From the IMG/VR virus record IMGVR_UViG_2526164690_000043, positions 1 to 13,417 of that record: a DNA stretch of 13,417 nucleotides, one strand, 5' to 3'. This document shows positions 1,836 through 2,835 of this stretch, piece after piece. Each line of letters opens with the position of its first letter. Position 1 is the first letter of the stretch. The notes beneath the pieces are model-generated. The model did not search any database, was not told where the DNA came from, and worked only from the letters and a program-made list of their open reading frames with translations. A program made the translations under genes and the position numbers. This stretch comes from a virus. Its lineage: Duplodnaviria; Heunggongvirae; Uroviricota; Caudoviricetes.

Positions 1836-2738
1836 ATGAATACTGGATATTCTCCCGAACAAGGGCGGGGCTTCGTTCGTCCTGAAAAACAGAATCTGCA
1901 AAATTTTGCCGAAATTATTCCGGTTATTTCCGGCCTTACTGGCGGGAGTGAAACCAATATTGTTAACGCCAGAGCGTTGCAGATGTTTGATGATAAAAAG
2001 GGAGTAAATTTAACTTACACCCCTGACGGCAATCAGAATATGAGCATTATCTCTGAGTCAGGTTTCTACAAACTAATAAAAACAAAAAGCGCCCCGTTGC
2101 CGGAGCGCCTTTGTGAACAATTAACCTACTGCGCAAAAAATGAATCTGAGCAGTGGGATTATATCAACCATGTGGAGAAGCGCCACAATTGCCGAATAAC
2201 GGGCAAAACAAAGGCCACCCGCTACGGTGGCCCCTCGACACAAGCTACACGTTATCCCCAACGCATGAGCATTGCCAACAATGCCACATTTGCGGCTGGT
2301 GGGCAATGCAATCAGTCTGGTTCAGTTCGTTGCCATACCTGCAATGAGCGCTTTTCCCTGTACTCTTTAAGGAATTGCTCAAGGGCAAAAGCACATGGCG
2401 CGAATCTTTCTGATTCATGCTCTATCTTTCTGCGCCGTCTTTTCCGTGCCGGTGATAATGTTTTGGTCAATTCTTTATCGGTCATTGTGTTGTCCTGCAT
2501 AGCAATGCGCCGTAGTTACTCACACCACGGCGCTGGTGATGGTTACTCCTGCTCTTTGGCCTTGCGACGCTGGCGGCGTTTGATCTCACCTTTAACGGCA
2601 GTAACTATAAATTGCGCCTTGCTTTCACCTTCATCTAAATTTTTTCTAAGTCTGCAACAACATCATGCGGGAATCTGGCATTTAACTGTTGCGACTTATT
2701 ATTTGTTGAACCTGTTGCCATTACTGAATCCTCTCTAA
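1836..2738 (+). CDS. Hypothetical protein; the first ~120 codons look coding, the 3' extent is doubtful
   Basis: 300-codon open frame. The N-terminal part (to about ...WDYINHVEKR, ~2200) has ordinary composition, with ISESGFYKLIKTKSAP faintly reminiscent of Bro-N/antirepressor proteins. The C-terminal two thirds are Ser/Leu/Arg/Cys-rich with rare codons, overlap a minus-strand RHH gene and run through a minus-strand terminator hairpin. The true stop may be hidden by an indel. Confidence 0.35.
   Translation: MNTGYSPEQGRGFVRPEKQNLQNFAEIIPVISGLTGGSETNIVNARALQMFDDKKGVNLTYTPDGNQNMSIISESGFYKLIKTKSAPLPERLCEQLTYCAKNESEQWDYINHVEKRHNCRITGKTKATRYGGPSTQATRYPQRMSIANNATFAAGGQCNQSGSVRCHTCNERFSLYSLRNCSRAKAHGANLSDSCSIFLRRLFRAGDNVLVNSLSVIVLSCIAMRRSYSHHGAGDGYSCSLALRRWRRLISPLTAVTINCALLSPSSKFFLSLQQHHAGIWHLTVATYYLLNLLPLLNPL
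2202..2232 (-). terminator. Candidate rho-independent terminator for a leftward transcript
   Basis: Stem GGCCACC (2213-2219) / GGTGGCC (2226-2232) with a 6-nt loop. On the minus strand the hairpin is followed by TTTGTTTTG (complement of 2202-2212). Confidence 0.5.
2312..2500 (-). CDS. Hypothetical small basic protein downstream of the RHH gene
   Basis: 62-aa minus-strand ORF (MQDNTMTDKELTKTLSPARKRRRRKIEHESERF...) lying between the RHH gene and the minus-strand terminator. No recognisable family; could be the second gene of a two-gene leftward operon or spurious. Confidence 0.3.
   Translation of the reverse strand: MQDNTMTDKELTKTLSPARKRRRRKIEHESERFAPCAFALEQFLKEYREKRSLQVWQRTEPD
2543..2721 (-). 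CDS. Arc/Mnt/CopG-like ribbon-helix-helix DNA-binding protein (candidate repressor), interrupted by a 1-nt indel
   Basis: Minus-strand ATG at 2721-2719 gives MATGSTNNKSQQLNARFPHDVVADLEKI, then a stop at 2637-2635. The adjacent frame continues LDEGESKAQFIVTAVKGEIKRRQRRKAKEQE to a stop at 2545-2543. Joined, the ~59-aa product has the RHH strand-helix-helix pattern (compare P22 Arc ...FNLRWPREVLDLVRKVAEENGRSVNSEIYQRV...). The break lies in an A6/T3 run (plus-strand 2637-2645); one extra base restores the frame. Confidence 0.55.
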
Positions 2739-2740
2739 GT

Positions 2741-2835
2741 TGGTGCGATTCAGTATACACAAAAAAAATTTCAGAGAAAGACTTGAAGTGCGATTCACTT
2801 ACTGATAGGTTAAAAACGAATGGTGCGATGCACCA
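2741..2835. promoter_or_regulatory. Divergent control region with three copies of a (G)GTGCGAT motif, one inside a perfect palindrome
   Basis: TGGTGCGATTCA at 2741-2752, GTGCGATTCA at 2789-2798, and the palindrome TGGTGC-GAT-GCACCA at 2821-2835. The region sits between the leftward RHH gene (start 2721) and the rightward early operon (start 2912). Candidate operator sites. Confidence 0.45.

Follow-up and report, generated by a model that had tools for sequence, protein, structure and literature searches.

In the Arc/Mnt system of phage P22, the operator lies within the spacer that separates the −35 and −10 elements of divergent promoters, the repressors are autoregulated, and residues at the protein N terminus decide operator specificity. 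At the Pant promoter, Arc acts by promoter occlusion from an operator positioned between the promoter elements. For the phage-inducible chromosomal islands of Gram-negative bacteria, the 2018 paper that describes the EcCICFT073 island type names AlpA as an activator and calls the global repressor of Gram-negative elements 'unclear' (PMC6092414), which agrees with the remark in an earlier note on the DNA analyzed here that repressors of such islands are poorly defined. We examined the 13,417-nucleotide (nt) viral DNA record IMGVR_UViG_2526164690_000043, whose whole length is called the window hereafter, and specifically a small leftward gene located between alpA and a rightward early operon. 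This gene may be the repressor so far missing for Gram-negative islands of the EcCICFT073 type. On the strength of sequence comparison, we consider it likely that its product is a small dimeric repressor of the Arc/Mnt ribbon-helix-helix type that belongs to the YlcI/YnfO family and would act on three operator sites (O1, O2, and O3). The coordinates of these and other features are collected in Table 1.

Judged by its near-identity to CFT073 over positions 1500 to 3200, the window element is closely related to EcCICFT073, the prototype among Gram-negative phage-inducible chromosomal islands. CFT073 matches this region at 98.9 to 99.6% identity over 84 to 85% of its length, and the corresponding islands of O103, O111, and O157 strains match it at 99.9% identity. 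The island of strain RM8385 likewise shares 99.9% identity with the window, and its integrase and AlpA proteins have the accessions of their CFT073 counterparts.

In the window, the small leftward gene is interrupted by a frameshift. The earlier note proposed that two minus-strand frames join into one product, and this is indeed the case. When one T is added to the homopolymer at 2640 to 2645 (T6 in the window, T7 elsewhere), the two frames yield an intact protein of 59 amino acids (aa), MATGSTNNKSQQLNARFPHDVVADLEKNLDEGESKAQFIVTAVKGEIKRRQRRKAKEQE, which is WP_000190566.1 of RM8385, annotated as 'YlcI/YnfO family protein'. The length of the T-run is the sole difference from the intact RM8385 gene. 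Because all 71 complete Escherichia coli genomes that carry the window allele have the longer run (96 nt versus 95 in the window) and none is 100% identical, the frameshift is, by this comparison, private to the window sequence, arising either from a mutation specific to the strain or from a miscount of the homopolymer during sequencing. Read literally, the window gene yields a 28-aa stub. If the window sequence is correct and the gene is indeed frameshifted, the window copy would therefore make no functional repressor.

Several lines of evidence indicate that the minus-strand gene is real. The repaired protein matches the NCBIfam model NF041551 (YlcI_YnfO_N) with 63.3 bits (E = 1.5e-17; cutoff 30 bits), and the CFT073 allele scores 67.4 bits. 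Among 15 loci with the same strand sequence, third codon positions of the minus-strand gene take 2381 of 3338 differences (71%), and 1780 codon differences are synonymous versus 833 that are nonsynonymous. The earlier note had pointed to an open reading frame (ORF) on the plus strand, 1836 to 2738, as the alternative target of purifying selection. The comparison favors the minus strand, because the differences sit on the second codon positions of that plus-strand ORF. The Shine-Dalgarno sequence and start codon of the small gene are also conserved across loci. Homologues of 59 to 62 aa occur in Escherichia, Klebsiella, Salmonella, Citrobacter, Enterobacter, Yersinia, Pectobacterium, Proteus, Morganella, Hafnia, Xenorhabdus, and other genera, and the same family is found in an unrelated setting as K-12 YlcI, encoded beside cos and nohD in the DLP12 prophage. 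The family is small, with only 93 relatives recovered by a HMMER search of 1.84 billion representative proteins. A tblastn search over 50,697 phage records gave no match, and neither the window protein nor 61 relatives matched Pfam DUF3950 (PF13132) at E ≤ 1.

The three repeats listed in the earlier note are genuine. The sequence GTGCGATTCA begins at 2743 and at 2788, and GTGCGATGCA begins at 2823, where an inverted repeat (TGGTGC-GAT-GCACCA, 2821 to 2835) encloses the third copy. Exact matches to GTGCGATKCA number three in the window versus 0.10 expected, and 0 of 200 shuffled sequences reached three. No further operator sites rose above chance near alpA or elsewhere in the window.

To place these sites in a broader context, we fetched 71 related loci from species-representative genomes that span about 20 enterobacterial genera. 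Almost every locus carries three copies of an 11-base-pair (bp) word, GTG-N5-CAC. Counted back from the ATG of the small gene, O1 begins at 32 nt, where it overlaps a conserved TATACT, and O2 begins at 77 nt, next to a conserved TTGA(A/C/G)G of the opposite strand. O3 lies 22 to 35 nt beyond O2 in either orientation. O3 moves and flips between lineages, and even within one specificity class, with its sequence kept. Nearly all loci share a rightward promoter composed of a TTGA(A/C/G)G −35 element, a spacer of 17 to 18 nt, and a TAnnnT −10 element. In the window, O1 takes in the final two bases of the leftward −10 element and extends across the expected transcription start of the repressor gene, and O3 falls at approximately +5 to +15 relative to the rightward start. 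Many other alleles place O3 22 to 23 nt from O2, where it overlaps the rightward −10 element. The leftward promoter has no good −35 element. A simple promoter scan of the window called neither switch promoter, because each has one weak hexamer, and therefore these promoter assignments rest on cross-locus conservation. The earlier note recognized in this region the geometry of a repressor-operator switch, and the three sites do occupy fixed positions within both divergent promoters among the 71 loci. This layout suggests promoter occlusion together with autoregulation, the latter being the role that we would ascribe to O1.

Separately, a perfect 9-nt inverted repeat at 2722 to 2730 and 2747 to 2755 (TACTGAATC and GATTCAGTA) flanks the repressor Shine-Dalgarno sequence and overlaps O1. 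It may form a leader hairpin, although its 5′ arm may precede the transcript start.

The most informative observation is that the five-base core of the sites differs between loci and tracks residues 9 to 18 of the small protein. The sequence KSQQLNARFP accompanies the core AATCG in 16 loci from seven genera, KSQMTTVRIP accompanies AAATA, KSKKLEARVP accompanies TCAGC, and both KSQALKARVP and KSQSLKSRVP accompany TGGCC. Within a locus, O1 and O2 differ at 1.2 of 10 positions. Between loci, the value is 0.72 for operators paired with matching strand motifs and 4.04 for those paired with unlike motifs. A permutation over 25 classes found that 0 of 100,000 shuffled protein-operator pairings were as concordant as the observed set. 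Among five genera with the same strand sequence, the sites are 96 to 100% identical and the DNA between them is 57 to 72% identical.

The residues responsible could be narrowed further. Classes that share residues 10, 12, 14, and 16 have an operator distance of 1.28 versus 3.93 for the rest. Changes at residues 9, 11, 13, 15, and 17 leave the operators unchanged, and classes that agree at these five positions while differing at residue 12 or 14 have operators 4 to 5 bases apart. Alternate residues of the strand thus appear to face the DNA and to set specificity, with the two-residue period that is expected of a ribbon-helix-helix strand and in a register matching that of P22 Arc. We also made a forward prediction for the widespread O157:H7 allele, whose N-terminal sequence MERDHINNKSQKLQARAP predicted CTGGATTCCA sites. 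In the O157:H7 locus, O1 and O3 indeed read CTGGATTCCAG, and O2 has this sequence inverted. These fixed promoter positions, combined with a core that co-varies with DNA-facing residues, favor the proposal of the earlier note that the repeats serve as operators of the leftward gene product.

Comparison of the window with CFT073 (L002, 3568 to 3895) reveals what looks like a natural exchange of this specificity. The two sequences are identical outside approximately 2567 to 2875 and strongly diverged inside. The swapped segment of about 310 bp includes the first ~50 codons of the repressor gene, both promoters, and all three operators, and it codes for nothing other than this N-terminal portion of the small protein. 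In place of the window repeats, CFT073 carries GTGGGCCACAC twice and a degenerate third copy. The divergence suggests that recombination exchanged a specificity module whose limits are the conserved codons of the C-terminal tail and the leader hairpin.

Islands that reside in the same genome also avoid sharing a specificity. Among 11 genomes with two to four loci, 0 of 21 pairs share a class versus 4.8 expected, and 31 of 20,000 within-genus shuffles reached zero shared pairs, with the caveats that the assemblies are drafts and that specificity class may be linked to attachment site. These genomes include Xenorhabdus innexi (L050, L059, L062, and L065), X. mauleonii (L057, L063, L067, and L070), and nine others. 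Judged by this pattern, co-resident islands behave like heteroimmune phages.

The small protein probably has a ribbon-helix-helix fold. A monomer structure model predicts an extended N terminus, a helix at residues 19 to 30, a G-E-S turn at 32 to 34, and a second helix at 35 to 58. We assign the strand to residues ~9 to 18 (KSQQLNARFP), helix A to 19 to 30, and helix B to the region from residue 35. By hhalign, residues 8 to 32 align with residues 5 to 29 of P22 Arc (P = 3e-4, probability 39%), such that N14, R16, and P18 fall on Arc N11, R13, and P15. A broader family profile gave the same register against Arc (P = 8e-4). When compared with the PDB, this broad profile had among its top four matches 3no7 (E = 0.0067), AmrZ (0.81), and a CopG/Arc/MetJ antidote protein (0.84), all three of the ribbon-helix-helix type. 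Sequence searches of the PDB with the single protein, K-12 YlcI, or a narrow alignment found nothing relevant. Distant family members match the Pfam models Arc (3.2e-4), PSK_trans_fac (2.9e-4), and RHH_1 (0.0029), and among 61 members the sub-threshold Pfam matches include CB_ParB_C in 15 and PSK_trans_fac in 12. The ribbon-helix-helix assignment of the earlier note is probable rather than proven: it is favored by the predicted order of extended segment, helix, turn, and helix, by the Arc register, and by the PDB profile matches, but the 59-aa protein itself has no Pfam ribbon-helix-helix match.

As a separate observation on this protein, its tail E-I-K-R-R-Q-R (residues 46 to 52; approximately 2566 to 2586 on the minus strand of the window) is invariant across all specificity classes. 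The DNA encoding it is identical in the window and CFT073 and marks the recombination boundary of the module. The tail could be a surface that touches the DNA backbone, mediates dimer-dimer contact, or binds some other partner.

We propose the following mechanism. The N-terminal strand of the repressor would read the 11-bp GTG-N5-CAC sites, with GTGAATCGCAC as the DNA site on which a dimer would sit. The invariant residues R16 and S10 presumably read the constant outer triplets, and residues 12 and 14, together with the N-terminal arm, would determine which variable core is recognized. Repressor bound to O2 and O3 would occlude the rightward promoter that serves the icd-like gene through to the replication genes, keeping the island quiet, and repressor bound to O1 would limit its own synthesis. 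Protein N terminus and operators would be exchanged jointly, as a specificity unit of about 310 bp. With at least 25 orthogonal classes, comparable to the immunity groups of phages, several islands could share one cell. The gene, the sites, and their positions, conservation, and co-variation are direct observations, whereas binding, repression, autoregulation, and the role in immunity are deduced from them.

Some of our results and some published data weigh against this proposal. Induction of EcCICFT073 requires AlpA, and over-expressed AlpA alone induces the island (PMC6092414). A repressor hence cannot be the sole control. The monomer model contains no strand and is of low confidence (predicted local distance difference test (pLDDT) score of 67), fold searches with it were uninformative, and a Pfam scan of the repaired protein and 61 relatives found no ribbon-helix-helix model above threshold. 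A rightward frame is open through the whole switch and is sometimes annotated in place of the small gene by the Prokaryotic Genome Annotation Pipeline (PGAP). Finally, the protein N terminus is physically linked to the operators, and thus co-inheritance could explain part of the co-variation. Co-inheritance is nevertheless unlikely to be the whole explanation, because three separate sites change in concert and O3 relocates.

The positions of the sites bear on whether the protein might bind all three yet serve mainly to activate its own promoter, or to act in a centromere-like or architectural role, rather than to repress the early operon. The leftward promoter has a good −10 element and no −35 element, with O2 located ~48 bp upstream of the expected start, as might suit an activator, and the weak matches to the centromere-binding ParB C-terminal domain and to 3no7 fit the architectural version. 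Yet O2 resides in the −35/−10 spacer of the rightward promoter and O3 on its −10 element or start, which are classic occlusion positions, and the ~6 kb of the island examined contain no partition ATPase gene. Activation of its own promoter would also be compatible with repression of the early promoter. We regard this alternative as improbable.

The gene next on the same strand raises the question of whether the small protein is instead a ribbon-helix-helix antitoxin paired with a downstream 57-aa toxin, such that the repeats only autoregulate the pair. Many ribbon-helix-helix proteins are antitoxins encoded upstream of their toxin, and the weak Pfam similarities include PSK_trans_fac and TacA1. 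A toxin-antitoxin arrangement is nevertheless very unlikely, because the 57-aa gene is not conserved: among the 73 loci compared, it is present only in the islands of RM8385 (L001) and CFT073 (L002). In O157:H7 the repressor gene is followed directly by a terminator, and several loci of Xenorhabdus have alpA only ~220 nt past the repressor-gene stop. Furthermore, two of the three sites are in the divergent promoter, outside of the gene's own, and the C-terminal tail is short and basic, without the long extension that would bind a toxin.

The natural swap between RM8385 and CFT073 speaks most directly to the idea that the repeats bind another factor, such as AlpA, the integrase or an excisionase, a host protein, or a replication initiator. 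In favor of this idea, AlpA binds DNA and activates the island, and repeated short sites are typical of origins and recombination sites. In these two islands, however, AlpA and the integrase are identical, yet the sites differ (GTGCGATTCA versus GTGGGCCACAC), and the swapped segment codes for nothing beyond the N-terminal part of the small protein, whose residues 12 and 14 are tracked by the sites. In addition, the sites are located in promoter elements, and the origin is placed with the replication genes by PMC6092414. AlpA in particular is ruled out as the reader of the repeats, because it is identical in islands where the sites differ, and for the remaining factors taken together with it we see only a slim chance.

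That the long plus-strand ORF (425 aa in RM8385) is the real gene, with the minus-strand ORF a mere shadow and the repeats otherwise caused, is scarcely tenable even though this frame is widely stop-free, often starts with a Shine-Dalgarno sequence and ATG, and is called by PGAP in some strains, given that its operator-region portion shows no amino-acid constraint, that the long ORFs have no Pfam domain beyond a weak Bro-N, that the minus-strand protein matches a curated family also present in the unrelated K-12 YlcI context, and that the strand residues of this protein co-vary with the sites at a two-residue period. Both the rightward frame and the minus-strand gene could be used, making an exclusive plus-strand interpretation unlikely.

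The open rightward frame is a finding in its own right. The frame of the icd-like gene stays open opposite the repressor gene in 70 of 71 loci. Over the 165-nt operator region it is likewise without stops in 56 of the 71 loci, or 26 of 29 when counted by class, and each of these two counts has a probability of ~3% by shuffling. The other two rightward frames contain 4.6 to 4.8 stops in the operator region. In RM8385 the frame forms the 425-aa ORF, which runs from just past alpA to the end of the icd-like gene, and in the window the T6 frameshift cuts it, leaving ORF 1836 to 2738. Many of the long ORFs open with a Shine-Dalgarno sequence and an ATG. PGAP annotates 'Icd-like' proteins of 305 to 306 aa in EH031 (L074, 1101 to 2018) and tcmA_3 (L075, 2223 to 3143), where the YlcI/YnfO gene is unannotated. 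RefSeq is inconsistent in this respect: in other strains it annotates the small gene and an Icd-like protein of 66 or 94 aa. Synonymous versus nonsynonymous differences of the open frame in the operator region number 101 versus 861 and 53 versus 669, with no third-position excess, and no Pfam domain was found in the long ORFs except a weak Bro-N match at the N terminus of the window/RM8385 ORF. Because the frame is stop-free yet shows no amino-acid constraint, selection seems to keep it open regardless of the encoded residues.

A second conserved element is located between O3 and the start of the icd-like gene. An alignment of 55 loci revealed two hairpins with compensatory changes in 12 of 21 predicted pairs. 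Many of these pairs are G-U only when read leftward, and a U-rich tail follows on the leftward strand. A −10-like sequence for this direction, TA(T/G)(G/A)CT, lies upstream within the first icd-like codons and persists in most loci, including where these codons specify different amino acids (SN in place of HT). We infer that the element is a cis-antisense RNA covering the ribosome-binding site of the icd-like gene. Full-model matches to SymR (RF01809) were obtained on the leftward strand of L007, L020, and L044 (32 bits, E ~0.04; gathering score 61), and the window itself gave no SymR match. No C4 or isrK match was found in the window at E ≤ 1, in 2760 to 2960 at E ≤ 10, or in 11 related loci. 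Plasmid_R1162 matched the plus strand of the window weakly (16 bits, E = 1.1).

The candidate antisense RNA over the icd-like ribosome-binding site probably adds a second, post-transcriptional lock to that of the repressor. In phage P1, icd translation is coupled to downstream transcription. More tentatively, the YlcI/YnfO module may be the immunity repressor of enterobacterial phage satellites within a three-layer switch of repressor, antisense RNA, and open frame, a proposal that we consider possible but doubtful. Transcripts driven by AlpA that read through the switch would be translated in frame into the icd-like gene. Such translated read-through would evade Rho termination, circumvent the antisense block as well as the repressed promoter, and collide with transcription of the repressor gene. 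If true, the three-layer switch would explain why these islands are induced by an activator rather than an anti-repressor.

The remaining features of the region follow the EcCICFT073-type order of int, alpA, a variable zone, and replication genes (primase/RepA). The rightward operon extends from the icd-like gene, which is the first divergent gene in most of the 71 loci, to the RepA/primase gene at 4662 to 6059. alpA is convergent with the small gene in 45 of 71 loci. The module flanks are present in 1441 of 5426 complete E. coli genomes. The two leftward intrinsic terminators are the likely ends of the repressor transcript. Both fall inside the first part of the plus-strand ORF, 1836 to 2240, which weakly resembles Bro-N (E = 0.039, residues 52 to 91) and lacks a RefSeq annotation. 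An intact BRO-N gene occupies this place in the O157:H7 island, and the window stretch is probably a decayed Bro-N gene. The int-alpA RNA motif RF02996 exceeds its gathering score in the int-alpA gap of L004 (6057 to 6125), L021 (5461 to 5529), L020 (5966 to 6038), and L055 (5469 to 5537), and is slightly under it in L025. It was not detected in window positions 1200 to 1900 at E ≤ 10.

Table 1. Features of the island switch region and its surroundings (window coordinates unless a locus is named)
Feature	Position	Strand	Details
Tyrosine integrase	1-1230		Start of window
alpA	1595-1783	+	Pfam Phage_AlpA 3e-18; convergent with repressor gene; known activator of this island type
Second leftward intrinsic terminator	2112-2085	−	
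Leftward intrinsic terminator	2235-2210	−	10-bp GC stem followed by UUUGUUUUG
57-aa hypothetical gene	2312-2485	−	WP_000130015.1; downstream of repressor gene
YlcI/YnfO-family gene (probable ribbon-helix-helix product)	2543-2721	−	59 aa when intact; frameshifted in window
T6 homopolymer	2640-2645		A6 on coding strand; source of frameshift
Operator O1 (putative)	2743-2753		GTGCGATTCAG; CTGAATCGCAC on the gene's strand
Leftward (repressor) promoter, −10	2752-2757	−	TATACT; conserved in nearly all 71 loci
Rightward early promoter	2783-2811	+	−35 TTGAAG 2783-2788; 17-nt spacer; −10 TAGGTT 2806-2811
Operator O2 (putative)	2788-2798		GTGCGATTCAC; begins at final −35 base and fills promoter spacer
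Operator O3 (putative)	2823-2833		GTGCGATGCAC; within inverted repeat 2821-2835
Candidate cis-antisense RNA, ~77 nt	~2911 to 2835	−	Opposite icd-like leader and ribosome-binding site
Predicted antisense hairpins	5′ hairpin 2887-2903; terminator hairpin 2875-2843	−	Followed by U-rich tail
Candidate extended −10 of antisense RNA	2919-2927	−	TGGTATGAT; within icd-like codons 3-6
icd-like gene	2912-3112	+	66 aa; first gene of rightward early operon
Stop-free rightward frame of icd-like gene	1836-3112; L001 2837-4114	+	Runs through antisense of repressor gene and operators

In the searchable literature we found no description of this repressor-operator system, of the antisense RNA, or of the open frame, although an earlier description elsewhere is possible. 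One paper treats the zone as Bro-network genes and immunity RNAs (PMC10111431), and a 2026 comparative-genomics paper places YlcI/YnfO among accessory genes, simply as a 'prophage-associated protein' (PMC13612085). With a repressor-operator pair defined, experiments could directly address how islands stay quiescent, how they establish themselves after transfer, and whether they confer immunity to one another, and the mosaic swap between otherwise identical islands would be explained. Such a pair would also suggest a function for the E. coli genes ylcI and ynfO. Synthetic biology and engineered island 'drones' could draw on a natural set of 25 or more small, orthogonal repressor-operator pairs (59 aa, 11 bp).

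How, then, does this locus compare with known systems? Stl proteins, the repressors of Staphylococcus aureus pathogenicity islands (SaPIs), are much larger than 59 aa and are not ribbon-helix-helix proteins. The earlier note likened the region to Stl/Str, and this holds for a divergent repressor gene with operators in a shared control region, but the likeness is one of layout only. SaPI Stl is inactivated by binding a helper-phage protein, whereas induction of the EcCICFT073 type needs the activator AlpA. In common with SaPI Stl/Rpr, the island gene is located between the integrase side and a divergent early operon and is presumed to keep the island quiescent (PMC6092414).

K-12 YlcI (DLP12) and YnfO (Qin) belong to the same NCBIfam family and share the predicted order of strand, helix, G-x-x turn, and helix. 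YlcI itself matches DUF3950 at 1.9e-20, and it differs in residing within a lambdoid prophage rather than opposite an icd-like gene. We found no reported function of YlcI or YnfO in the searchable literature. The plasmid regulators CopG, omega, and ParG/ParB are probably of the same fold class and likewise act at promoters through short repeated sites, and 3no7 is the best PDB profile match. The island lacks their plasmid copy-control or partition context, and sequence similarity is marginal. Like P1 immI (c4 RNA, icd, ant) and E. coli SymR/SymE, the island would have an icd-type gene or ribosome-binding site covered by an antisense RNA. Its RNA would differ in being cis-encoded, with no C4/isrK match and a SymR score of 32 versus the required 61.

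P22 immI is among the closest known systems. Both have a small (53 to 82 aa) protein, in the island probably of the same strand-helix-helix type and with an N-x-R-x-P strand in register with Arc Q9/N11/R13, and an operator in the −35/−10 spacer of a divergent promoter pair, and autoregulation and operator choice by N-terminal residues are predicted for the island repressor as well. The differences are that the Pfam Arc model is under threshold on the island protein and that the P22 operator is 21 bp with two half-sites whereas the island has three single 11-bp GTG-N5-CAC sites. The island is moreover a phage satellite with at least 25 natural specificity classes, and control would fall first on an icd-like gene instead of ant. 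Ribbon-helix-helix repressors that act on promoter operators are a known kind of system, and what is new is the repressor family, its proposed role in a Gram-negative satellite, the many exchangeable specificities, and the surrounding antisense RNA and open frame.

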